From a virus (lineage: Duplodnaviria > Caudoviricetes): a stretch of DNA of 35,272 bases. Where the stretch lies: the IMG/VR virus record IMGVR_UViG_3300042901_001003, positions 1 through 35,272 of that record, one strand, 5' to 3'. Both the position numbers and the translations under genes were made by a program. Below the pieces are notes generated by a model. It saw nothing but the letters and a program-made list of their open reading frames with translations. It did not search any database and was not told the origin of the DNA. Shown here piece after piece: positions 10,902-29,705 of this stretch (positions are counted from its first letter, which is position 1; each line of letters starts with the position of its first letter).

Positions 10902-11120
10902 TTATTTTTTAATTAAATTTTTCTCAAAAATACAAAAACTTTCTTTTAAATCGCTTATTGTTGTTTTTTTTCGTTTGTCTTTTTTAATTTCAGGCATATT
11001 TTTAATAACACTATCCCTTATAAATTTTGAAACATTTACTTTATTTTTTCGTAATTGCTTAAAAAATTCCTTCATTTTTTTATCACAAGTGAAAGTTTGT
11101 ATTTCGTTGTAAATTTCCAT
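10902..11120 (-). CDS. Putative ribbon-helix-helix DNA-binding protein
   Basis: QTFTCD strand followed by helix and NVSKFIRDSV, typical of RHH proteins. Confidence 0.5.
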   Translation of the reverse strand: MEIYNEIQTFTCDKKMKEFFKQLRKNKVNVSKFIRDSVIKNMPEIKKDKRKKTTISDLKESFCIFEKNLIKK

Positions 11121-11155: not shown

Positions 11156-11185
11156 TTATAGTGTAATGTTGTAGTTATGAGCAAG
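11156..11185 (+). other. Candidate attI-like primary recombination site at left end of cassette array
   Basis: TTATAGTGTAA-TGTTGTAG-TTATGAGCAAG; the G/TTA at 11174 matches cassette 1 right end (CCTGCTCATAAC) and has no preceding hairpin. Confidence 0.55.
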
Positions 11186-11186
11186 T

Positions 11187-11489
11187 TTACTGACCGTCTT
11201 CGTAACGGCTCATTTCAAAACCGTGTGAATAAAAATCCCCAAGTCCACCAGCATCAATAACTATTTTATAATTATAATCTTCGTGAGAAACTACAATTTG
11301 AGTTCCTTCATCATTTTCTATATTTTCAGTTGGTATTCCAACACATTCTATAAAGTGTTGCATACTTTGGTTGTTATCCATACCCATATTATCGTTTTCA
11401 TTGATAATTCGATAGGATGTTTCTCCTTTTGCAAATTCATCAAACATTTGCGTTATCGAATTTGGTATCTCATAAATTTCTGTTTTCAT
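11187..11489 (-). CDS. Cassette 1 hypothetical protein
   Basis: 100 aa acidic ORF filling cassette 11175-11648. Confidence 0.75.
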   Translation of the reverse strand: MKTEIYEIPNSITQMFDEFAKGETSYRIINENDNMGMDNNQSMQHFIECVGIPTENIENDEGTQIVVSHEDYNYKIVIDAGGLGDFYSHGFEMSRYEDGQ

Positions 11490-11520
11490 AATAATTTTTT
11501 GTTTAAATTACACAACCTGC

Positions 11521-11654
11521 TCATAACAGCAATTTGGCAATATGTCGGTTTTGGTCTTTAATTTAATGGTCGTTTTGTACTTGTAGAAATTCGGTATTTC
11601 CGAATGTCTTGGCTTCTTTAATCCGCCACATCGCCAAGTTGCAAAACGTTAACA
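11521..11654 (+). repeat. attC-like site 1
   Basis: TCATAACA-GCAATTTGGC...GCCAAGTTGC-AAAAC-GTTAAC. Confidence 0.85.
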
Positions 11655-11660
11655 AATATA

Positions 11661-12104
11661 TTATTCTGAACTTTGTAGTAATTCAGGATTTTCATAAACA
11701 TTACCTTTAATAAAAGTTGTTTTAATCCAATATCCTAAATCTTTTCTAAGAACTTCATCATTAAATTCTAAGTAAAAGCCAATATGTAAAGCGTGTTTAT
11801 CGTCACAAGGATTTCTGTATGGTCCAAATTTTACAATACCTTTTTTATTTTCATCAAAATGATAAGGCATTATATCCCCTTCGTAAATCTCTTTTTCATT
11901 TTTATCTTTTAAACCTGTGTATTGCATAAACACAATTTCTTTTTGCCATTGTTCAAGCTCTTTTTCTTTATCATAAGTATCTTCATAAGATAATCTATAT
12001 TGAAATGTTTCTGAAATTGCTGAATCAATTTGGGTATCTTCTGGGTATATCATTTCATTAACTACTTGATTTTTTACCCATGCTCTAAATTTAATTTCTC
12101 TCAT
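11661..12104 (-). CDS. Cassette 2: YopX-family protein
   Basis: MREIKFRAW...MQYTGLKDKNEKEIYEGDI...GNVYENPELL signature. Confidence 0.9.
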   Translation of the reverse strand: MREIKFRAWVKNQVVNEMIYPEDTQIDSAISETFQYRLSYEDTYDKEKELEQWQKEIVFMQYTGLKDKNEKEIYEGDIMPYHFDENKKGIVKFGPYRNPCDDKHALHIGFYLEFNDEVLRKDLGYWIKTTFIKGNVYENPELLQSSE

Positions 12105-12136
12105 AATTTTATTTTTTTTATGTTTAAAAATACATT

Positions 12137-12271
12137 TGTTAACAGCGGTTTTGTGCTATTGCCGTTTTCGGCTAAATTTAAAGGTTTGTTTATATCTTCA
12201 AACATTTGTCTTTAATTTAAAAATTAGTGTGTGTTTTTTCGGCAACATCACAAAGCCTGAGAACGTTATGC
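12137..12271 (+). repeat. attC-like site 2
   Basis: TGTTAACA-GCGGTTTTGTG.TATTGCCG...CGGCAACATCACAAAGCC-TGAGAAC-GTTATG. Confidence 0.85.
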
Positions 12272-12277
12272 GTAATG

Positions 12278-13060
12278 TTAAGACAGCACCCTGCTAACCG
12301 AAACATTGTAATAATTTTTATCTTTTTCAATCCCTATGTATTGCCTATTTAACTCTTTACAAGCTAAACCAGTTGTATTACTACCCATACAATTATCCAT
12401 TACTACATCATTTTCATTTGAATAGGTTTTAATTAAGTATTTCATAAGTTCCAAAGGTTTTTGTGTTGGGTGTAATTTGTTTTTTTGGTTCGCATTACTA
12501 ATTTCAAGTATTGATTTTGGATATTTGAAATTGGTTGTATATTCTATTGAAGTTGTATTTTTTCTTGCATAAATATCGCTATCAGCTTCTTTTTTATACT
12601 TCCTTACTTTTTCTCTCTTTTCAAGTTGTGGTATATAAAGCATATTGTTTTTATTACAATTAGCTGTATTTGCTTTTGAAAATATTACAATATCCTCGTG
12701 GTTTTGCATCGGCTTTAATTTAGCAGTTAAAAAATTGCCAGGCTTTACCTTATTCCACACCCAAGTATATTTAAACATCTTTCTATTGCTTATTATCAAT
12801 TCAGTTGTAAATGGTTGCATAGCTGTTAATACTATTGCTCCATTTGGTTTTATAATCCTTTCGTATTGTTCCCAAAGTTTAGGTAAATCAAGTAAGCTAT
12901 CCCACTTTAAACCTGTTACATTATAGGGCAAGTCGCAAAGTATAAGTTGAACACTTGCATCAGCAATGTATGGAAATACATCGAAGCAATCAGCGTGGAC
13001 TAAAACACTACGCATAACATCGGTTTTGCAATAGTGGGGCGGAAGTTGTAAATTCATCAT
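12278..13060 (-). CDS. Cassette 3: orphan DNA methyltransferase (N6_N4_Mtase, beta-class order)
   Basis: Catalytic motif variant CDLPY, then HPTQKP, then SAM-binding DNCMGSNTTG...YIGIEKD. Confidence 0.9.
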   Translation of the reverse strand: MMNLQLPPHYCKTDVMRSVLVHADCFDVFPYIADASVQLILCDLPYNVTGLKWDSLLDLPKLWEQYERIIKPNGAIVLTAMQPFTTELIISNRKMFKYTWVWNKVKPGNFLTAKLKPMQNHEDIVIFSKANTANCNKNNMLYIPQLEKREKVRKYKKEADSDIYARKNTTSIEYTTNFKYPKSILEISNANQKNKLHPTQKPLELMKYLIKTYSNENDVVMDNCMGSNTTGLACKELNRQYIGIEKDKNYYNVSVSRVLS

Positions 13061-13142
13061 TTGTAATTCTATTAAAGTTTAGTTGTGGGTTGAACTTTTG
13101 TGCCTTGAAACCCCACCATCGCAAAGCCCCGATACGTTATAA
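13012..13142 (+). repeat. attC-like site 3 (contains MTase start codon)
   Basis: GCATAACA-TCGGTTTTGCAATAGTGGGG...CCCCACCATCGCAAAGCC-CCGATAC-GTTATA. Confidence 0.85.
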
Positions 13143-13148
13143 GTAACT

Positions 13149-13430
13149 TTATGAAGTAGTTTGCGTACAAATTGAATGAACATCTTTAATCAAATTGTCA
13201 ACAAACCATTTGTTATCTTCACAATCTAAATTGCTCCAACCATAATCAAATTCAAGTTTTTCTTTTATTTGTTCTAAAATTTTTTCGTCAATTTGTTTTT
13301 TACAATCTTCTATACTTTCTCCAGAACCTATTGCAAAATCTTCATCTTCTGAAAAGAAATGCACTTTGCTATTTTTTGGTGCGAATCCTGATTTATCAAA
13401 TTCAAACCAAAAACCTTTATATATTTCCAT
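13149..13430 (-). CDS. Cassette 4 hypothetical protein
   Basis: 93 aa ORF filling cassette 13137-13576. Confidence 0.75.
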   Translation of the reverse strand: MEIYKGFWFEFDKSGFAPKNSKVHFFSEDEDFAIGSGESIEDCKKQIDEKILEQIKEKLEFDYGWSNLDCEDNKWFVDNLIKDVHSICTQTTS

Positions 13431-13450
13431 AGTTTTAATTTAAAAGCTAC

Positions 13451-13582
13451 TTATAACAAATAATTGTATCAATAGCTTGTTTAGTGTTTAATTTAATGTT
13501 TTGCGTTTTTTTGTAATCTTATTTTAATCTGAAACGTATGGTAACTTTAGCACGCTACTAATACAATTATCATACGTTATAA
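13451..13582 (+). repeat. attC-like site 4
   Basis: TTATAACA-AATAATTGTATCAATAGC...GCTACTAATACAATTAT-CATAC-GTTATA. Confidence 0.85.
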
Positions 13583-13589
13583 GAAATAG

Positions 13590-13934
13590 CTACGTTTTCT
13601 TTTCAGTTGAAAATATAAGTTCTAAACCTTTTTTATATTTATTATTACGAATAATAACTTCATTAACCTGTTTGGTAACATTTTCAAGTAAGTAATTTAT
13701 TTTTTCATCTTTGTTATCAGTGTTAATTTCATAAGATAAAATATAAGAATTACATCTTTTATCAAATAAAGTGCTATCTGGATTTTCTATAAATTCTTTA
13801 GCGTTAAATATTTTTAATATTTTCTTTTTTCTATAAGCGTAACAATTTATAAGTTCTTTTTTGTATTGTCCTTGTTCAATAATAAGATAAAATAAATTAC
13901 CATAACAATCATAAGCTTCATATTCTTTTTCCAT
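13590..13934 (-). CDS. Cassette 5 hypothetical protein
   Basis: 114 aa ORF filling cassette 13577-14090. Confidence 0.7.
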   Translation of the reverse strand: MEKEYEAYDCYGNLFYLIIEQGQYKKELINCYAYRKKKILKIFNAKEFIENPDSTLFDKRCNSYILSYEINTDNKDEKINYLLENVTKQVNEVIIRNNKYKKGLELIFSTEKKT

Positions 13935-13965
13935 AATTACTATTTGTGTTTATACCCGCTACTTC

Positions 13966-14096
13966 TTATAACAGCAATTTGTAGAAATGGCTACTATTCG
14001 CAGTTTTGGATTGTTGTTGTTTAATTTATAATTCGTTAATTTTTGTTGTCTATTCGCTTGAATTACGCCACTTCTACAAGTTGCCAAACGTTAACC
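13966..14096 (+). repeat. attC-like site 5
   Basis: TTATAACA-GCAATTTGTAGAAATGGC...GCCACTTCTACAAGTTGC-CAAAC-GTTAAC. Confidence 0.85.
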
Positions 14097-14097
14097 G

Positions 14098-14268
14098 CTA
14101 TTTAAACTCAACTTTGTGGATAATTGAGTCTTTGTAGTGAATTGGAAATTTTAACCTTGCTAAAGTATGATAAGGAAAACCAAACTCTAAACATAGCTTT
14201 TTAAAATTACCTCTTACTATTGGCGGTTCGTTAGGTTGCAAAAGTACTATTGTGTTTTTTCGTTGCAT
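14098..14268 (-). CDS. Cassette 6 ORF c, small putative DNA-binding protein (56 aa, not in ORF track)
   Basis: Manual translation MQRKNTIVLL...GNFKKLCLEFGFPYHTLARLKFP...EFK*; HTH-like middle segment. Confidence 0.6.
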   Translation of the reverse strand: MQRKNTIVLLQPNEPPIVRGNFKKLCLEFGFPYHTLARLKFPIHYKDSIIHKVEFK

Positions 14269-14459
14269 AATTTTTCTTGGTATAAAATCTTTAATTTTTT
14301 ATGATAGTCTTTATATGATTTTGGTTTATCACATTTTTCTAATGGAGAAATATATTCATATTCGTAACCTAAAACCATTTGAGATAGTTTTTCTGTTTTG
14401 TATTCTAAATCACAATATTGATTTTTATTATTTGCTCTGCAATTTTGACATTTTTTCAT
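14247..14459 (-). CDS. Cassette 6 ORF b, small Cys-containing protein
   Basis: 70 aa; CxxC...C...C pattern. Confidence 0.65.
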   Translation of the reverse strand: MKKCQNCRANNKNQYCDLEYKTEKLSQMVLGYEYEYISPLEKCDKPKSYKDYHKKLKILYQEKLCNEKTQ

Positions 14460-14495
14460 AAAAATATGCGTTACAGTCGCATCCCTGTTTTTTTT

Positions 14496-14663
14496 TTATT
14501 TTAGTTCAACATTATATTTTTCTATCCATTTGGTAACTCCGTTTTTTGTAAGCTGAACTGAGTTTTTAGTTTCTTTTTCAACTACTAAAGTTTCTCCTAT
14601 TGATGCTCTAAATAATGATTTGTAAGAACCTTTTAAAACATTTTTTGTGAAAGTTGCTGTCAT
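14496..14663 (-). CDS. Cassette 6 ORF a (55 aa, not in ORF track)
   Basis: Manual translation MTATFTKNVLKGSYK...NVELK*; lies just downstream of the cassette-internal promoter. Confidence 0.65.
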   Translation of the reverse strand: MTATFTKNVLKGSYKSLFRASIGETLVVEKETKNSVQLTKNGVTKWIEKYNVELK

Positions 14664-14693
14664 AATTTCTATTTTTAGTTGTTATTTCTTTTA

Positions 14694-14724
14694 CAAATAT
14701 ACGACTAATTTTGATACTACCAAA
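14694..14724 (-). promoter_or_regulatory. Bacteroidota sigma-A promoter inside cassette 6
   Basis: Minus strand TTTG-N19-TATATTTG, an exact match to the -33/-7 consensus. Confidence 0.8.
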
Positions 14725-14763
14725 TAAAATTACAATTATTTTTAAAATTTATGTAAAAACAGC

Positions 14764-14898
14764 GGTTAACAGTGGTTTTATTCAATAGCGGTTTCGGTGT
14801 TTAATCTAAAAAATAGTGTGTATTTGTAAACTTTAGGCATAACCGAAATATAGTTTTTTACTTTTCCGCTACTGAAATAAAGCCACCATACGTTATAA
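14764..14898 (+). repeat. attC-like site 6
   Basis: GGTTAACA-GTGGTTTTATTCAATAGCGG...CCGCTACTGAAATAAAGCCAC-CATAC-GTTATA. Confidence 0.85.
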
Positions 14899-15096
14899 CT
14901 CATTTTGGCGAACCCTTATCAAACGACTTTTTTTGTCGAAAATCACATTTTCTTTTGGTATAATTTTAACCTCACTAATTAATATTTTACAAGGTTCATC
15001 TAAATACCAAATGTATTCAGGGTCTGTTTCTGAAATCATACCAACTTCACAATATTTTGGGTTAATTCCTTTCGGTTGAAAATATACTGTATTCAT
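14893..15096 (-). CDS. Cassette 7 ORF b, hypothetical
   Basis: 67 aa; stop codon is the TTA of the G/TTA core. Confidence 0.7.
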   Translation of the reverse strand: MNTVYFQPKGINPKYCEVGMISETDPEYIWYLDEPCKILISEVKIIPKENVIFDKKSRLIRVRQNEL

Positions 15097-15263
15097 AATA
15101 TTTCAGATTTTGAAGTTATCATTTTAAAGTAATTCAAGTGTATTTGAGCAGCAGCATAATATTTTAAAGCTGTACTAAATTTTCTTTCTTTTCTGAATAT
15201 TTTAGCTAAATATTTGTTTCTGTAATATTCTTTTTCGCTGTGTTCTTCAATTAAATTTTCCAT
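15093..15263 (-). CDS. Cassette 7 ORF a (56 aa, not in ORF track)
   Basis: Manual translation MENLIEEHSEKEYY...SEIL*; ATGA overlap with next ORF. Confidence 0.6.
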   Translation of the reverse strand: MENLIEEHSEKEYYRNKYLAKIFRKERKFSTALKYYAAAQIHLNYFKMITSKSEIL

Positions 15264-15275
15264 AATAAAAACGAG

Positions 15276-15300
15276 TTATAACAGCAATTACACGCTATTT
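15276..15300 (+). repeat. Truncated attC-like site 7 (left arm only)
   Basis: TTATAACA-GCAATTACACGCTATT with no matching right arm or CGTTA before the next ORF. Confidence 0.7.
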
Positions 15301-15548
15301 TAAGAAGCGACAACTACAATCATATCATTTTCAATTCTTCTAATAGCTTGCTCAACACTTAAATTAGTATTTACATAGTCTAGTTGTAACCAAAAAGGAA
15401 AATACCATTTCCATTTTTGGACTTCAAACCCGCCATAATTATCTCTAATTATTCTATATTTAATAATTTTAAATCCAATAAAAAAAACAGCAGGTAACAC
15501 AGGTTTTGTGCTATTGCTTGGCTCGGTGTTTTCTGAATGTTTAGTCAT
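15300..15548 (-). CDS. Cassette 8 hypothetical protein (cassette left end missing)
   Basis: 82 aa; N-terminus encoded within attC-like site 8. Confidence 0.65.
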   Translation of the reverse strand: MTKHSENTEPSNSTKPVLPAVFFIGFKIIKYRIIRDNYGGFEVQKWKWYFPFWLQLDYVNTNLSVEQAIRRIENDMIVVVAS

Positions 15549-15625
15549 AATCTGTAATTTTTAGTGTTTAAATTAAAATTTGTTTTATTTTTATGCAACA
15601 GGCACAAAGCCCGAAAACGTTATGC
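15492..15625 (+). repeat. attC-like site 8
   Basis: AGGTAACA-CAGGTTTTGTGCTATTGC...GCAACAGGCACAAAGCC-CGAAAAC-GTTATG. Confidence 0.85.
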
Positions 15626-15859
15626 CTCATTGCCCGAAAGAATAGAAACAATCTCTTTTCCTCTTTCAACACAATGATTTATTTCTTCCCATCCGTGACC
15701 ATCGTAATTTTTTTGATGCAATAATATTTCGGATGCTTCAATCAATTTTTTCATAACGTCTTTTAAACACCAAGCGTTATCCATTGCTAAAACAGATTGC
15801 AACGAAGGCATAACAGCCGTTTCAAGCAATTGCGGGATTTGTTTTTTATCTTCAATCAT
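15620..15859 (-). CDS. Cassette 9 hypothetical protein
   Basis: 79 aa; starts within attC-like site 9 and stops at the core TTA. Confidence 0.7.
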   Translation of the reverse strand: MIEDKKQIPQLLETAVMPSLQSVLAMDNAWCLKDVMKKLIEASEILLHQKNYDGHGWEEINHCVERGKEIVSILSGNEA

Positions 15860-15944
15860 CGGTCTTTAATTTAAGTTTGGTTATTATTTGTTATTTTTGG
15901 GTATTAAACCCCCGCAACTGCGTGAAGCGGCGGGAGCGTTAGCA
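15808..15944 (+). repeat. attC-like site 9
   Basis: GCATAACA-GCCGTTTCAAGCAATTGCGGG...CCCGCAACTGCGTGAAGCGGC-GGGAGC-GTTAGC. Confidence 0.85.
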
Positions 15945-15950
15945 GTAATG

Positions 15951-16373
15951 CTAAAGTGAATCTAACAAATCTTGTTTTGTAATTGTAAACTTATCCTTGT
16001 AATTTTCATAGTAAAGTTTAGGTAATAAATCTATAATTTTTTTGAAATCAATATTTTCATCTAAAATTTTAGTTATTTTTTCATACTCATCATCAGAATT
16101 ATTTTCTGAAAATCTATCATCATCAATTCTTTTAGTTATCCATTGTGAAGAAAAATTAATAATTGGTTCTAATTTAGAGCCTTTGCACTCAAAAACTGCA
16201 TCTTCTTCTAATTCTCTAACTTGTTCTTCTTCTCCGTCAAAAACTTTATAGATAAAATCCTCTAAATCTGTATAAAATTCACCATCTTCAAAAAAGTTTT
16301 CCATAAATCGCGAAGCACTACCGCTAACATCGGTTTTGTCTAATTCCTTAGAATTGTTTGTATCTGAAATCAT
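15951..16373 (-). CDS. Cassette 10 acidic hypothetical protein
   Basis: 140 aa, very D/E-rich; upstream start lies within attC-like site 10 (an internal Met start is also possible). Confidence 0.75.
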   Translation of the reverse strand: MISDTNNSKELDKTDVSGSASRFMENFFEDGEFYTDLEDFIYKVFDGEEEQVRELEEDAVFECKGSKLEPIINFSSQWITKRIDDDRFSENNSDDEYEKITKILDENIDFKKIIDLLPKLYYENYKDKFTITKQDLLDSL

Positions 16374-16456
16374 AATGTTTAATTTAAATATTGGTACTTG
16401 TTTGTTGTGTATAGTTTTAAATCATCGGCACTAGACAAAGCCGAGAACCGTTATAA
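16322..16456 (+). repeat. attC-like site 10
   Basis: CGCTAACA-TCGGTTTTGTCTA...TAGACAAAGCCGA-GAACC-GTTATA. Confidence 0.85.
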
Positions 16457-16462
16457 AACAGT

Positions 16463-16735
16463 TTAACCGACATCGTGCATATCATCAACTATCTTTTGTT
16501 CTTGTGTTCTTTTTGATAAATCAACTATTTCAACCCATTCAAAACCATCAAACAAGGTGTCGTGTCTATTATCATCATGGTTTTTTCTTAGATGTTTAGG
16601 TTTTGAATAAGCTTTTAATTGACCATTAACCTCTTCAAAATAATCTCCTTCTACATAATCTATCGCATGAGGAACATATCTTATTGCTGTTCCTTTTCTG
16701 TAACCTCTTTTTTTTGCTTCTTTAATTAAGTCCAT
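16463..16735 (-). CDS. Cassette 11 hypothetical protein
   Basis: 90 aa; LIKEAKKRGY..G...W.EIV pattern. Confidence 0.75.
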   Translation of the reverse strand: MDLIKEAKKRGYRKGTAIRYVPHAIDYVEGDYFEEVNGQLKAYSKPKHLRKNHDDNRHDTLFDGFEWVEIVDLSKRTQEQKIVDDMHDVG

Positions 16736-16748
16736 AATAAAACCGATT

Positions 16749-16872
16749 TTATAACAATGGTTTGTAGCAAAACTACTTTAGGCTACCTTTCCATCGTTGG
16801 TTAATAATTCTTTTGTGTTTGTTGTGTGTGTTTATAATTCTACGTTCTGCTACAAGCCATCGAACGTTAGCG
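16749..16872 (+). repeat. attC-like site 11
   Basis: TTATAACA-ATGGTTTGTAGCA...TGCTACAAGCCAT-CGAAC-GTTAGC. Confidence 0.85.
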
Positions 16873-16888
16873 GTAATACTAAGAACCA

Positions 16889-17194
16889 CTAGGCGTTTTT
16901 ACGGATAAAATTCAACATTTCAGAACCGTGTTTAAAACAATCACAGCCTCTATTTTCGTCAAAAGGTTTTGTGCTTGGTACAGTATTTCCATTTAATTTA
17001 TATACAGGACAACTACTATTGCAACTTGAATGTTCACTATCGCAAATTTCGTACAATTCAGTACTTAAATTTTCTTCCGATATAGCACCAGTTCTTGCAT
17101 ATTCCATTACAGATTTAGGTGTCAAATCAGAATACTCAATATCTTTATCTGTTACTTTTTCGCCTTTTGCTAATTTGATAATTAATTCTTCCAT
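16889..17194 (-). CDS. Cassette 12 Cys-rich hypothetical protein
   Basis: 101 aa; C...H..C...CP...CDC cluster. Confidence 0.75.
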   Translation of the reverse strand: MEELIIKLAKGEKVTDKDIEYSDLTPKSVMEYARTGAISEENLSTELYEICDSEHSSCNSSCPVYKLNGNTVPSTKPFDENRGCDCFKHGSEMLNFIRKNA

Positions 17195-17240
17195 TTTAAT
17201 AAAATTTAATTGACAAACCCTGTGATTAAAAAAGTACTAC

Positions 17241-17373
17241 CGCTAACAAGGGTTTGCCAAAATGGTGGCGATAGTGCTATATTTGAACTTTTGTGCTTTT
17301 TATTGGCTTTTGTGCTAAACTGAAACATTCTGCTTTCTATCCCACCACTTCGGCAAGCCCTAATCCGTTAGCA
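17241..17373 (+). repeat. attC-like site 12
   Basis: CGCTAACA-AGGGTTTGCCAAAATGGTGG...CCACCACTTCGGCAAGCCCT-AATCC-GTTAGC. Confidence 0.85.
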
Positions 17374-17667
17374 AATAGTTTTAGAACACTCGTCTAAAAC
17401 AGCCACTAAAAGATGTTTGTTTAAATCTGAATTTAACGGCACAATTGGTTCTGATGGACAAATAGTTTTATACTGCTTTTCAAATACTGAAAGTACTTTC
17501 TCTACATCAATTTCAGGATATTTGTTTTTTAGCATATCTGTAAATGAAGTTCTTATTCCTATAATAATATTGTTTTCTTTCAAAAGCTCTTTGTGTTGTT
17601 CTTTTGTTAGGTTTTCTTCTTTTGATTTTACATAGCATTGATGTGCTGTAAGTTTTATTTTTTCCAT
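17368..17667 (-). CDS. Cassette 13 hypothetical protein
   Basis: ATG start at 17667 (MEKIKL...) preferred over the track's TTG at 17688; stop is the core TTA. Confidence 0.7.
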   Translation of the reverse strand: MEKIKLTAHQCYVKSKEENLTKEQHKELLKENNIIIGIRTSFTDMLKNKYPEIDVEKVLSVFEKQYKTICPSEPIVPLNSDLNKHLLVAVLDECSKTIC

Positions 17668-17679
17668 AATAAACCGATT

Positions 17680-17813
17680 TGCTAACAACTACTATATTCA
17701 ATAGCGGTCATTGGGTTAAATTCAACAATTTGTTTGTACTTGGTTTTTTCAGTCTTAAACCGAAACTTATTTTTGTATATTTAGCAACATCGTGTAGCCC
17801 CTAAACGTTAGTA
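17680..17813 (+). repeat. attC-like site 13 (arms poorly matched, probable hybrid)
   Basis: TGCTAACA-ACTACTATATTCAATAGCGG...GCAACATCGTGTAGCCC-CTAAAC-GTTAGT. Confidence 0.75.
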
Positions 17814-17826
17814 GCAAGTGATACTT

Positions 17827-18069
17827 TTAGTCATTGTAGAAAATTTCAGTATAATCAGCATCTTTACCACCACACCACCAACTTTTTACATTATCTATCG
17901 TTGTATCTTCAAGCCAACAAGAACGGAAATCAAAAGTCCAAACACTTCTTTTGCCAATCCATTTTCCATCAATTAATTTCCAAACAACATTGTTGGCATC
18001 TAACATACAACCCCCAACATTTCTTACAATTTCCTCGCAAAAGATGTTTGATATTTTATTGTAAACCAT
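17827..18069 (-). CDS. Cassette 14 Trp-rich hypothetical protein
   Basis: 80 aa ORF filling cassette 17808-18190. Confidence 0.7.
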   Translation of the reverse strand: MVYNKISNIFCEEIVRNVGGCMLDANNVVWKLIDGKWIGKRSVWTFDFRSCWLEDTTIDNVKSWWCGGKDADYTEIFYND

Positions 18070-18093
18070 TTCCGTTTAATTTACCGCACCAGC

Positions 18094-18196
18094 CACTAAC
18101 AGCGGTTTGGTGCAATTATTTTGCCTATTAAATTTATCTAAAGCTCGAAGTATCTGCAAGGCAAAATAACAGACACCAAGCGGCAAAACGTTAATC
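18094..18196 (+). repeat. attC-like site 14 (short, 103 bp)
   Basis: CACTAACA-GCGGTTTGGTG.AATTATTTTGCCT...AGGCAAAATAACAGACACCAAGCGGC-AAAAC-GTTAAT. Confidence 0.85.
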
Positions 18197-18400
18197 TTTA
18201 CTATAATCTAATTCAACTTTACAACCACTTTCTTCAAACTCTAATTTTACTTTTAATAACTTAGCGTATGTAACAGCTGGCGCCTGTGGATTTTTACTTT
18301 TAATCTGTAACGCTAATTTTGATGGTGTTACACCTACCATTTTTGCAAAGGTGTTATTATTCTTTGCGGTTTCTGAAATTAATTTTTGTAGTATGTTCAT
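18191..18400 (-). CDS. Small HTH (XRE/Cro-like) regulator, first gene of leftward operon
   Basis: NNTFAKMVGVTPSKLALQI HTH-like segment; start at 18400 preferred because 18424 overlaps the promoter. Confidence 0.6.
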   Translation of the reverse strand: MNILQKLISETAKNNNTFAKMVGVTPSKLALQIKSKNPQAPAVTYAKLLKVKLEFEESGCKVELDYSKD

Positions 18401-18421
18401 TTGTCTTATAATTTTATAATG

Positions 18422-18429
18422 CAAAGATA
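18422..18429 (-). promoter_or_regulatory. Leftward promoter -7 element
   Basis: Minus strand TATCTTTG (TAnnTTTG) about 20 nt upstream of the ATG at 18400. Confidence 0.7.
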
Positions 18430-18486
18430 TATAAATATTTTAAATAAAAAAGTATAAATTAATTTTTTTTATAAATATTTTCCTTT

Positions 18487-18494
18487 TACATTTG
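18487..18494 (+). promoter_or_regulatory. Rightward early promoter -7 element
   Basis: TACATTTG about 20 nt upstream of the ATG at 18514; divergent from the leftward promoter. Confidence 0.7.
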
Positions 18495-18513
18495 CAATAT
18501 CAAATTATAAGAT

Positions 18514-21137: not shown

Positions 21138-21656
21138 ATGGAAACACAAACAGACTGGAGAAAATTCAGAAAATCAACTCATTTAGCAAGTGCCGACCTT
21201 GACGCTCTTGAAACAGATGGTAAAAAATTAATCTTTACAATTAAAGAAGTAAAGTACGAACAAGGTGTCGATGTTTCAGGAACTAAAATGGATGGAATTT
21301 TTTGCTACTTTTTAGAACCTGTTAAACCTTTAAAACTTAATTCAACAAATAATAAAGTACTTGCTGGATTTGCAAAGAAAAACGGACTAATCGGAAAAGA
21401 ATGTCACGTTATTGAGAATTGGAAAGGAATGAAAATTGAACTTTTTGTTGATAGAAATGTAAAAATGATGGGAGCTATTACCGATGGTATTAGAATCAAA
21501 CCATTGCAACCAACAGAAGTTAAAACAAAGCCTATTTTTACAGAAGCTAACTTTGAAGCTGCTAAAACTGCAAAAGCTACAATTGAACAAATAAAAACTA
21601 AATATGAACTAAGTACAGAAATGGAAATAAAATTTAAAGAATATGCAAAGCAATAA
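21138..21656 (+). CDS. Putative recombination/ssDNA-binding protein
   Basis: Position directly before the exonuclease; L...DL...TIK.V...KPLKLN.TN...W.G.KI.L OB-like pattern (inference). Confidence 0.45.
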   Translation: METQTDWRKFRKSTHLASADLDALETDGKKLIFTIKEVKYEQGVDVSGTKMDGIFCYFLEPVKPLKLNSTNNKVLAGFAKKNGLIGKECHVIENWKGMKIELFVDRNVKMMGAITDGIRIKPLQPTEVKTKPIFTEANFEAAKTAKATIEQIKTKYELSTEMEIKFKEYAKQ

Positions 21657-22266
21657 TGAACAGCGTTCAGAAAATTGGAAAATAGAGCGTTATGGTAAAT
21701 TTTCAGCAAGCGAAATTATAAAACTTTTAGGAGTTCGTGGACTTGGTGAAACTGGGAAAACATACGCAATCGAAAAAGCAATTGAAGAACTTTACGGAGA
21801 AATGGAAGAGAATTTTGTTTCTTTTGATATGCAACGAGGGATAGAATTAGAACCGCTTGCCTTTGCTAAATTCAAAGAGTTGAAAGAATTAGAATTTTTA
21901 GAAGTTACAAATTGCAGTTTCTTTAAATTTAATGAAGATGCTGGAGCTTCGCCAGATGGATTAGTTTCAGATGATGCTGTTTTAGAAATCAAATGTCCGA
22001 AATCAACTACTTTCTTTGAATTGGTAGCAACAAATGAAATAGATAAAAAGTATTATGCACAAATGCAAATGCAAATGCTATGTACAAATAGAAATAAAGC
22101 GTATTTCTTTAATTATCTTATTCACGAGGGAACTGAATATCATCATGAAATTATCGTTGAACGTGAAGAGGTTATGATTGAATTAATTAAAACAAGATTA
22201 AACGAAGCAATCGAAATAAAAAAAGAGTATATTAACAAAATTAATACAAATAAACAATGGAAGTAA
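21643..22266 (+). CDS. YqaJ/lambda-exonuclease family protein
   Basis: QRS..W...R.G.FSASE, MQRG.ELEP, GASPDG, LEIKCP and YYAQMQ.QM motifs. Confidence 0.92.
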   Translation: MQSNNEQRSENWKIERYGKFSASEIIKLLGVRGLGETGKTYAIEKAIEELYGEMEENFVSFDMQRGIELEPLAFAKFKELKELEFLEVTNCSFFKFNEDAGASPDGLVSDDAVLEIKCPKSTTFFELVATNEIDKKYYAQMQMQMLCTNRNKAYFFNYLIHEGTEYHHEIIVEREEVMIELIKTRLNEAIEIKKEYINKINTNKQWK

Positions 22267-22532
22267 CAGGAAGAATTAAAGTAATCAACCCGACACAAGA
22301 AGTGTCTGCAAGTTTTAAAAAACGTGAATTAGTAGTAGTAACTGCTGAACAATATGTACAGCATATTTTAATAGAATTTGCACAAGATAAATGCGATTTG
22401 TTAGATAACTTTCAAGAGGGGCAAGAAGTGAAAGTAAGTATTAATTTACGAGGTAGAGAGTGGGTAAATCCACAAGGAGAAACAAAGTACTTCAATCAAA
22501 TTCAAGGTTGGAAAATTGAAGCTAATTATTAA
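22257..22532 (+). CDS. DUF3127-like OB-fold protein (putative SSB)
   Basis: FKKRELVV...Y.Q.I.IEF.QDKC..LD...INLRGREW...YFN.IQGWKI. Confidence 0.85.
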   Translation: MEVTGRIKVINPTQEVSASFKKRELVVVTAEQYVQHILIEFAQDKCDLLDNFQEGQEVKVSINLRGREWVNPQGETKYFNQIQGWKIEANY

Positions 22533-27526: not shown

Positions 27527-27607
27527 TGTATTGTCTCAGATACACATAAAAACATTATAAAAAATCCAACTATGATAAGACTGAGACCTTTGATTAGTTG
27601 GTTTTTT
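27527..27607 (+). ncRNA. Putative structured leader RNA, copy 2
   Basis: TGTAT/ATACA stem with loop GTCTCAG; second stem CCAACTA/TAGTTGG with loop CTGAGAC; T tract follows. Confidence 0.55.
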
Positions 27608-27612
27608 CATTT

Positions 27613-28386
27613 ATGATAGGAATATATAAAATTACAAGTCCAACAAAAAAAGTTTATATTGGTCAAAGTATAAACATTGAAAAAAGAATAAAGGATTATT
27701 CTAATTTAAAAAACTGCATTGAACAACCAAAATTATATAATTCGTTTTTAAAACACAAAGTAGAAAATCATATTTTTGAAATAATATGTGAATGTGAAAT
27801 AACAAAACTTAATGAATTAGAAAGATATTATCAAGAATTGTATAACGTTATTCAAACAGGATTAAATTGTGTTTTAACAAATACACAAGATAGATGCGGA
27901 TTTTTAAGTAAAGAAACAAAATTAAAAATTTCAAACTCAAAAAAAGGACAAGGTAAAGGAATTAAAAAAAGTATTGAATTTAAACAGTCAGTTTCAAAAA
28001 ATAATAAATTAAGAGTTTGGAAACAAGAATCTAAATTAAAATTATCTAAAAGTTTAAAAGGAAAATTTAAAGGTGAGCTAAACCCATTTTTTGGAAAAAC
28101 ACACACTAAAGAATCTTTATTAAAAATGAGTGAATCATCAAAAAACAGAAAACCACCAATGCTAGGAAAAAAACACTCAATAGAAACAAAAAACAAAATA
28201 AAAGAAAAAAATAAATTAAAAACATTTGGTAAAAATTCTAATGCTAAAATAGTTTTAGATATTTCAAATGGTATTTATTATGAGTGTGTAAAAGAGTTAG
28301 CAATTATATTAAATATTAATAGACATACTTTGTCAAGAAAAATAAGAGGTGACAGAAAAAATAATACTAATTATATTTACGTATGA
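27613..28386 (+). CDS. GIY-YIG homing endonuclease with NUMOD3-like repeats
   Basis: GIYKIT...VYIGQS...R...E; NPFFGKTHTKES and GKKHSIETK repeats; C-terminal HTH; ATG at 27613. Confidence 0.92.
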   Translation: MIGIYKITSPTKKVYIGQSINIEKRIKDYSNLKNCIEQPKLYNSFLKHKVENHIFEIICECEITKLNELERYYQELYNVIQTGLNCVLTNTQDRCGFLSKETKLKISNSKKGQGKGIKKSIEFKQSVSKNNKLRVWKQESKLKLSKSLKGKFKGELNPFFGKTHTKESLLKMSESSKNRKPPMLGKKHSIETKNKIKEKNKLKTFGKNSNAKIVLDISNGIYYECVKELAIILNINRHTLSRKIRGDRKNNTNYIYV

Positions 28387-29705
28387 AAGCTACAATAGTA
28401 TTTGAGAAAACATGGGGAGCTATAAACGCAAAGAAAGAAGACGGAAGCAGAAAGTATAAATATATTATTCATACTGGTTCTTCACGTTCAAGTAAAACAT
28501 ATTCTATACTTCAAACACATTGGCTAATTTGTTTAACAGAACCAAATACAAGAGTTTCTATTTGGCGTGAAACAAAAGCAGATTGTAAAATGACAATTTT
28601 AGCTGATTTAAAAAAAGCAGTACCAACATTTCCAAATAATGAAGTAGTAACTTTTAATAAAACTGAAAGTGTTTATACTTTTCCAAATGGAAGTACAATT
28701 GAATTTATGGGAGGCGACGAAGAAAATAGAGTACATGGGTTTCAAGGAAATGTAGCACATTTAAACGAGCCTTATAAGTTTGGTGAAGATGCATTTAATC
28801 AAATAGATATGCGAACAAGTAACTACGTAATTATTGATTGGAATCCAAAAAGTAAACATTTTATTGATGATATTAGTAAAAGAGATAATGCTATTGTTAT
28901 TCATTCTACATATAAAGACAACCCCTTTTGCCCAATTGAACAAAGATTAAAAATTGAAAGCTATTTATCAGTAAAATATACTGATGTAGTAGAAAGCAAT
29001 TTAATTGACTTATCAAACGCATACAATTATAATTTTGATAGTAATATATTAAACTTTACAGACAAACAATTAAAAGAACTTAAAAAAGCATTACACAATG
29101 AAAGTCAAAATACTTCAAACGATTATCTTCATTTAGTTTACGCAAAAGGTTTAAAAGCCGAGAAGCCTAACAGAATTTTTAAAGGGTGGAAAATAATAGA
29201 AGATAAAGAGTTTGAAAATTTACCTTATCCTTATTATTTTGGTTTAGATTTTGGAATTTCAGCTCCTACAGCATTGGTAAAAATGAAAACTGATGGAGAT
29301 GGAACTTACTTTTTAAAAGAGCTATTGTATAAACCACTTAATCAAATGAGTGGCACTTTATCTGATGAGTTAGAAAGTTTAGGAATACCAAAACATATTG
29401 AAATTATTTGTGATAGTGGTAACGAATTGAATCAAGGCGAAGGACAAAAGCTACGTAATAGCGGTTATAATATTATATTCGCTCAAAAGGGGCAAGGCTC
29501 GGTAGTTTCAGCAATTGAAACAATGCAAAAATCAACTATCTATTATACTAAAACAAGTTACAACCTTGAGGAAAATTACGAAAATTACTCATGGAAAATT
29601 TATCAAGGAATACAGCTTGATATTCCAGAAGAAACAAGAGAAGATTTAATAGATGCTTCAAAGTATGTAATTAAATGGTATTCCAAAACAAGATATTTAA
29701 CATAA
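28383..29705 (+). CDS. terL: Terminase large subunit (PBSX/Terminase_3-like)
   Basis: Walker A GSSRSSKT, Walker B variant AHLNE, DWNP, STYKDNPF, GLDFG and D.IDA. Confidence 0.92.
   Translation: MKATIVFEKTWGAINAKKEDGSRKYKYIIHTGSSRSSKTYSILQTHWLICLTEPNTRVSIWRETKADCKMTILADLKKAVPTFPNNEVVTFNKTESVYTFPNGSTIEFMGGDEENRVHGFQGNVAHLNEPYKFGEDAFNQIDMRTSNYVIIDWNPKSKHFIDDISKRDNAIVIHSTYKDNPFCPIEQRLKIESYLSVKYTDVVESNLIDLSNAYNYNFDSNILNFTDKQLKELKKALHNESQNTSNDYLHLVYAKGLKAEKPNRIFKGWKIIEDKEFENLPYPYYFGLDFGISAPTALVKMKTDGDGTYFLKELLYKPLNQMSGTLSDELESLGIPKHIEIICDSGNELNQGEGQKLRNSGYNIIFAQKGQGSVVSAIETMQKSTIYYTKTSYNLEENYENYSWKIYQGIQLDIPEETREDLIDASKYVIKWYSKTRYLT

Follow-up and report, generated by a model that had tools for sequence, protein, structure and literature searches.

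Sedentary chromosomal integrons consist of tandem one-gene units, each ending in an imperfect hairpin, the attC site, whose cores have the form TAAC…G/TT and are crossed over at G/TT. They also possess an entry site devoid of hairpin and a divergent tyrosine recombinase. Clusters of at least two attC-like sites without a neighbouring intI gene are referred to as CALINs, for attC clusters that lack an integron-integrase, and 17 phage CALINs were reported among 10,705 genomes (Qi et al. 2023, PMC9892861). According to the available part of that paper they are found in virulent phages, often with a DNA methyltransferase as cargo, and hold two to four sites where counts are given. None of the 21 genomes it lists is a Flavobacterium phage, and the cultured relatives of the virus considered here are absent from that list. 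A single complete integron was found in Bacteroidetes, as far as the available text of that survey goes (PMC9024848). Here, we describe an integron-like array of 14 cassettes in the IMG/VR record IMGVR_UViG_3300042901_001003 (Duplodnaviria; Caudoviricetes), a whole, linear virus record of 35,272 nucleotides, estimated to be 92% complete, whose full length is called the window below. By our own site model the array is a CALIN, and it covers about 7 kb, i.e. about one fifth of the sequenced phage DNA. Judging from comparison with related phages, it is demonstrably mobile, its cassettes being gained, lost and moved at their G/TTA cores. We give a probability of about 0.65 to the reading that this is carried out in trans by a host tyrosine recombinase belonging to an integron-like system of Bacteroidota.

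The array comprises 13 complete sites of the form TAACA…CG/TTA and a 14th, shortened TAACA element at 15279. A preliminary description, made from the letters of the window alone, had listed the 13 crossover G positions and the TAACA starts, and these proved exact. Its site lengths of 103-137 bp hold when three flanking bases are counted on each side (97-131 nt from TAAC to GTTA), and its units of about 320-870 bp were measured at 319-871 nt from G to G, the first being 474 nt long. It had further proposed that all sites except site 13 fold into imperfect hairpins. Site 13 (at 17683) is indeed the degenerate exception (folding z-scores of +0.15 and +0.31); the significance of single-site folding is modest, with z-scores from -0.6 to -3.2 among the sites listed, but the set covaries far beyond chance. 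Its proposal that structure is kept while primary sequence differs was thereby borne out: compensatory changes on both sides were found in 14 of 21 pairs, and covariation reached 0.398, a score attained by none of 500 shuffles, versus 0.149 in shuffled alignments, for a structure drawn by eye from the same window sequences.

A pattern derived from the window sites matched 164 stretches in bacterial genomes; nearly all of the 80 listed lie in Flavobacteriaceae, many of them in long arrays. When 138 host sites were aligned to the window site model, 91.8% of the cells paired and 17 of 21 pairs covaried, in an alignment that was itself fitted to the model. In the hairpin, 4 bp of core are followed by an A.C opposition, by a bulge of 4-5 nt on one side only and then by a stem that holds a fixed T.G. 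Three A.C oppositions are fixed on the top strand (in 137, 132 and 121 of the 138 host sites) and correspond to G.T on the bottom strand. A model-free cassette signature was matched nine times in the 35 kb, every time on the + strand inside the array, and never outside the array or on the - strand of the window. The motif TTAAT(T/C)TAA is present in the loop of six of the 13 window sites (1, 2, 4, 6, 8 and 9) and is rare in host sites (6/138 for TTAATTTAA).

As in classical attC sites, an inverse core and a core TAAC…G/TT lie on an imperfect hairpin whose arms covary. The geometry is nevertheless distinct from that of the aadA7 control: the classical R-L spacing of 5 and 6 nt with extrahelical bases is replaced by a one-sided bulge and fixed mismatches, and the spacer at the core is 1 nt versus 5-6 nt, compared with 5 versus 6 in the classical sites. 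Xer/dif modules rely on 28-bp double-stranded dif-like sites, for which no search was made, as opposed to the 97-131 nt hairpins described here. A canonical IntI with its I2 insertion could be supposed to service the array, as for the published phage CALINs, since the cores TAACA…CG/TTA equal those of aadA7 and IntI1 recombined five of six phage sites (PMC9892861). The only failure, however, was P12002L_attC1, which by inspection has the short asymmetric spacer of the present family. Moreover, complete canonical integrons are reported from one Bacteroidetes genome only (PMC9024848, available text) and the host arrays adjoin an enzyme without I2, so that a canonical IntI is very improbable in this role. 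In Polaribacter phage P12002L, one of the published CALIN phages, the sites are short, share these cores, accompany inverted genes and score weakly with our model (E 0.03-1.2). Two identical copies of a sequence of about 60 nt, closed by a GTT core, are found at 29150-29260 and 37190-37320 of this genome (L258), each heading a run of inverted genes. This repeat, the published P12002L_attC2, resembles an entry site that has been duplicated more than it does a hairpin site.

The cassette boundaries are further defined by complementary ends. The 11 nt located 3' of each G/TTA pair with the 11 nt located 5' of the next TAAC at 111 of 143 positions, compared with 3.7 of 11 for non-cognate pairs, and the cognate score was reached in none of 200,000 permutations. 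Unit ends are complementary over about 15 nt, with their own hairpin rather than with those of their neighbours, and position 11 of this outer stem is a fixed mismatch, always A facing C or G. The outer stem can only close in a circular unit. The flank following 11174 pairs with that of the first hairpin and no hairpin precedes it, which identifies an attI-like entry site (11162..11177, + strand, crossover G 11174). The entry motif heads the array in all of 19 cultured relatives. It is followed by eight different first-cassette families in 12 arrays, so that the site receives new cassettes, as an attI does. By itself the motif is unspecific, with only 11 of 48 viral matches leading into a cognate cassette, and no IHF consensus was found near the entry site in the window or in phage snork9-1. 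The flank following G 14892 pairs at 10 of 11 positions with the flank at the shortened site 15279. The array therefore holds 14 cassettes, the 727-nt unit being cassettes 7 and 8 fused by deletion.

Turnover was followed in the array regions of 19 cultured phages, 12 of which have model-defined sites. Among 12 phage pairs, blocks of exact match computed with no site annotation break at GTTA. The 12 arrays amount to 146 units in 33 families, eight of which occupy the first position, and changes of neighbour are clean at G on the left in 39 of 39 cases and on the right in 20 of 29; one event may be counted in several of these pairs, which are thus not independent. In seven of the nine remaining right changes, the cassettes concerned are two variants that differ by a 1-nt indel of the unpaired spacer, and the break is still at G/TTA. 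The breakpoints overlap GTTA, as for a G/TT crossover, with a resolution set by the 4 nt shared. A 439-bp cassette located mid-array in lillamy9-6 is first in lillamy9-7, its hairpin moving along at its right end. L001, the closest relative as judged from the flanking nuclease (93%), has the beginning of cassette 6 of the window directly at its entry site. Neither a usable circle nor a clean deletion joint was found in the contigs of four sequencing datasets that partly hold the array.

Exchange by short homology would be an alternative to site-specific recombination. The phage encodes a YqaJ/RecE-like exonuclease and an SSB which, with their neighbours (21138-22532), could swap genes between sites acting as mere linkers, and two hairpin swaps at the left arm as well as the fusion at 15300 do not fit a G/TTA crossover. 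However, the sequence shared at junctions is mostly 0-6 nt before the G, the entry site receives cassettes although it has no hairpin, and homologous exchange needs neither complementarity of cognate ends nor covariation of the arms. It is consequently improbable as the main route and probably acts as a secondary process.

A methyltransferase cassette of 893 bp is present in six of the 12 mapped arrays. Phages lillamy9-1 (L086) and morran9-1 (L097) lack it and were both reported to plate with reduced efficiency on strain LMO6; plating efficiency was tied to methyltransferase in that paper, whose available text does not use the words 'integron' and 'cassette' (PMC7077304). Since snusmum6-1, isolated on LMO6, also lacks the cassette, any link between the cassette and plating on LMO6 is tentative.

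No tyrosine recombinase was found with PF00589 in the window record (about 92% complete) nor in snork9-1, mumin6-1, hattifnatt9-1 and P12002L, while 14 of 14 positive controls were detected. A candidate is encoded by the hosts. In the complete chromosome of F. covae, 21 of 28 model hits (16 and 5; 150 candidates were scored per genome) lie directly behind two copies of one divergent recombinase. Twelve close homologues of full length had 1 kb or more of flank, and 8 of these 12 showed the cassette signature upstream, as opposed to none of 16 paralogue regions. The 370-380-aa paralogues that are common in Flavobacteriaceae were considered as the array enzyme and discarded, none of the 16 having an upstream array. 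In the hosts the signature lies behind a conserved attI-like motif, CGTA(T/C)ATTTGnGT/GTT, about 150-185 nt from the start codon, and one very large host array starts with its own copy. In four of four genomes with very large arrays, an orthologue without array in the divergent upstream position was found, and in genome G001 the enzyme and the arrays are interior to different contigs. This separation of enzyme and arrays indicates that action in trans occurs in hosts. The chromosome of the same genome has a pair of arrays, one with about 20 sites and one with about 30 (G001:C4 640360-706757), several cassette starts being common to both; a long integrase gene of phage type precedes the second.

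The candidate enzyme combines PF13495 and PF00589. It matches TIGR02249 at 179.9 bits in two pieces, below the cut-off of 265 for integron integrases, and its best fold match is the Vibrio IntI4 (2a3v), with XerA close behind; its alignment to IntI4 is split. The array-linked enzymes form one clade (Shimodaira-Hasegawa-like approximate likelihood ratio test, SH-aLRT, 100), separate from host Xer proteins, in a quick tree that leaves IntI1 and the enzyme of phage Leef_1 unplaced on long branches and does not include L275, L412 and L261. The I2 insertion is held essential for integron function and is not fully conserved among the simple tyrosine recombinases of an integron-like subgroup (Smyshlyaev et al. 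2021, PMC8138268); the available text of that study gives no cassette function for the members devoid of it. The extra N-terminal domain was considered as a HARP-like single-strand binder replacing I2, an idea that was dropped: no fold match exceeded Z 2.3 (single-sequence model, predicted local distance difference test, pLDDT, of 73), and the Leef_1 enzyme lacks the domain yet adjoins cassettes.

The array thus works like an integron and is outside the classical family: the phage has no recombinase, the candidate enzyme scores below the integron-integrase cut-off, and the end complementarity of about 15 nt, the fixed mismatch at position 11 and the antisense phage genes are specific differences. 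Several expectations of the preliminary description were borne out by these comparisons: no tyrosine recombinase in the window, relatives differing in cassette order with breaks at G/TTA, and the same sites adjoining a tyrosine recombinase in Flavobacteriaceae chromosomes. Its integron-like, shufflable array is supported, with a site geometry unlike classical attC, an enzyme that is no canonical IntI and inverted genes. Its caution that cassette arrays as the main variable region of a phage were not established has to be revised, integrase-less attC clusters in phages having been published (PMC9892861, available text), with two to four sites where counts are given, compared with the 14 sites and the turnover seen by comparison here. 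No description of this site family or of the enzyme came up in the literature search, which did not extend to subscription papers.

The enzyme might also be supplied by a co-infecting or resident phage encoding a short version of it. The cultured Polaribacter phage Leef_1 (L471 3592-6618) has a complete unit: it encodes a 287-aa recombinase without I2 insertion, annotated only as integrase, and in divergent position it has an attI-like motif of the host type together with three cassette signatures whose genes are inverted. The viral locus L420 has a related recombinase with two model hits and cassette signatures. Such helpers nevertheless look rare in these searches: of 50,697 phage records, 16 matched at E<=1e-25, Leef_1 being the only one from Bacteroidota, and among 16 loci in viral contigs model hits were obtained in 2. 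The position of Leef_1 in the tree is unsettled, owing to its long branch. A helper phage is thus an unlikely source, and a host recombinase acting in trans is preferred. More remote relatives are found elsewhere. On plasmid NZ_CP045128.1 (L472 3471-5492), tet(X3) is directly preceded, in the same orientation, by a recombinase that shares 51% identity with the array-linked enzyme and is shorter than its family; it may be a trace of Bacteroidota origin, and no cassette signature was found at this locus. More distant recombinases without I2 insertion (L473 583-1413 and hit H75) adjoin IS91-family transposase genes. IS91-family transposases also work on single-stranded DNA.

Every cassette gene of the window is antisense to the polarity of the sites. 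The window and three cultured phages provide 47 units and six uncultured viral loci provide 23, these units being partly shared, and the longest open reading frame (ORF) is antisense in all 47 and in all 23; of 60 host units, 57 have it in sense. This opposition implies a phage cassette pool distinct from the host pool, and the annotated phage cargo is phage-like (YopX, methyltransferases). The box TAnnTTTG, which we take to be the Bacteroidota -7 promoter consensus, is inside the attI of host arrays, where it would read the sense genes. It was not found at the phage entry site, where the sense-reading promoter of an integron is thus lacking. At the other end of the array, a divergent control region (18404..18512) with an inverted repeat and one such box on each strand (- strand at 18422, + strand at 18487) is a candidate leftward promoter, from which the promoter-like box at 18422 would read through the array. 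On the coding strand each phage hairpin stands just upstream of a gene and several ORFs can start inside, as would RNA leaders or processing signals ahead of early genes with an incidental mobility. Host hairpins are, however, located downstream of sense genes (57/60), the outer stem is only formed in a circle, and an Rfam search of the sites returned nothing at E<=1. Such signals are hardly credible as the primary function, a secondary RNA role being possible.

Several observations weigh against a host recombinase acting on the bottom strand of folded sites. One fixed T.G, in 134 of 138 host sites, favours the top strand, and the strand bias is weak in hosts, the bottom strand folding better in 51 of 138 array-form sites and in 31 of 42 circle forms. 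The I2 insertion is absent from the enzyme, which has 70 residues where IntI1 has 112 over the same span (42 fewer), and of 81 Flavobacteriaceae genomes sampled, only about 8 had the close enzyme clade. The phage entry site resembles the host attI motif only loosely. In two of the nine right changes that are not clean, which concern two cassette families, the hairpin was swapped at its left arm instead of at G/TTA, and the breakpoint data come mostly from relatives with about 70% DNA identity rather than from the phage's own population.

In the mechanism that we infer, from the link of the recombinase to phage DNA to the single-stranded substrate, the strand, the circles and the expression, a host enzyme related to IntI and devoid of I2 would recombine two folded single-stranded sites during infection, probably on the bottom strand. 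A circle would be released, the extended outer stem closing in it, and its insertion would then take place either at the entry site or at a different one. Reading of the inverted genes would start at the phage's leftward promoter, near 18425, as well as at internal promoters. The outcome would be a set of reshufflable early accessory genes, for instance methyltransferases against host restriction.

The cassettes, all on the + strand by site polarity, carry their ORFs on the - strand. Cassette 1 (11175..11648) has a 100-aa ORF (11187-11489) and the hairpin site 11524-11651. Cassette 2 (11649..12265, site 12140-12268) encodes a YopX-family protein (11661-12104, PF09643, E 3e-20). Lake-metagenome contigs with this YopX gene diverge from the window 12 nt into the hairpin (12140-12152), which suggests that the same gene is found there with another hairpin. 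Cassette 3 (12266..13136, site 13015-13139) encodes an N6/N4 DNA methyltransferase (12278-13060, PF01555, E 3e-32), recognized by PADLOC as a type II methyltransferase (E 1e-72), the sole match among 19 proteins. Cassette 4 (13137..13576) has a 93-aa ORF (13149-13430) with site 13454-13579 and cassette 5 (13577..14090) a 114-aa ORF (13590-13934) with site 13969-14093. Cassette 6 (14091..14892, site 14767-14895) has three small ORFs and a promoter-like TAnnTTTG box on the - strand (14694-14701).

Cassette 7 (14893..15300), with the shortened site at 15279, has ORFs at 14893-15096 and 15093-15263, the first of which matches an intact cassette of L009 at 94% identity. Cassette 8 (15300..15619, ORF 15300-15548, site 15495-15622) lost its start together with the end of site 7. 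In cassette 9 (15620..15938, site 15811-15941), the stop codon of the ORF (15620-15859) comes from the core. There follow cassettes 10 (15939..16450, ORF 15951-16373, site 16325-16453), 11 (16451..16866, ORF 16463-16735, site 16752-16869), 12 (16867..17367, ORF 16889-17194, site 17244-17370), 13 (17368..17807, ORF 17368-17688, degenerate site 17683-17810) and 14 (17808..18190, ORF 17827-18069, short site 18097-18193). A non-cassette gene at the distal end (18191..18424, - strand) takes its stop codon from the TTA of the last core and has homologues in L003, L004, L007 and L008.

The window encodes terminase, portal, capsid, tail, lysis, helicase and YqaJ proteins in an order that agrees with the cultured Baltic Flavobacterium siphophages (Lillamyvirus, Muminvirus, Hattifnattvirus), from which the missing part is deduced to be tail genes. 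Viral contig L464 is identical to the window across the left flank and cassettes 1-4 and may belong to the same sample series. The entry site adjoins a conserved 72-aa gene (10902..11120, - strand), ribbon-helix-helix-like by eye, with 33 tblastn matches among the relatives' loci compared and a weak NikA-like match (rank 21, 24% of members). A GIY-YIG/NUMOD3 homing endonuclease gene is located at 27598-28386, between the small and large terminase genes.

A broader proposal, put forward tentatively and rather doubtful at present, is that a widespread class of Bacteroidota integrons, missed by standard tools, uses an I2-less recombinase on folded single-stranded sites. Virulent phages would parasitise it while keeping an entry site to themselves and their inverted cassettes in a separate pool, so that phage counter-defence genes would be expressed and host cassettes captured at the phage site would stand antisense and silent. 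If the host-recombinase reading is true, the early accessory genes of these phages would be reshuffled site-specifically by a host-powered reaction. This would explain the variable region of cultured virulent phages, whose host range has been linked to methyltransferase content (PMC7077304, available text). It would also fill the apparent lack of integrons in Flavobacteriaceae and challenge the need for the I2 insertion in hairpin-site recombination.

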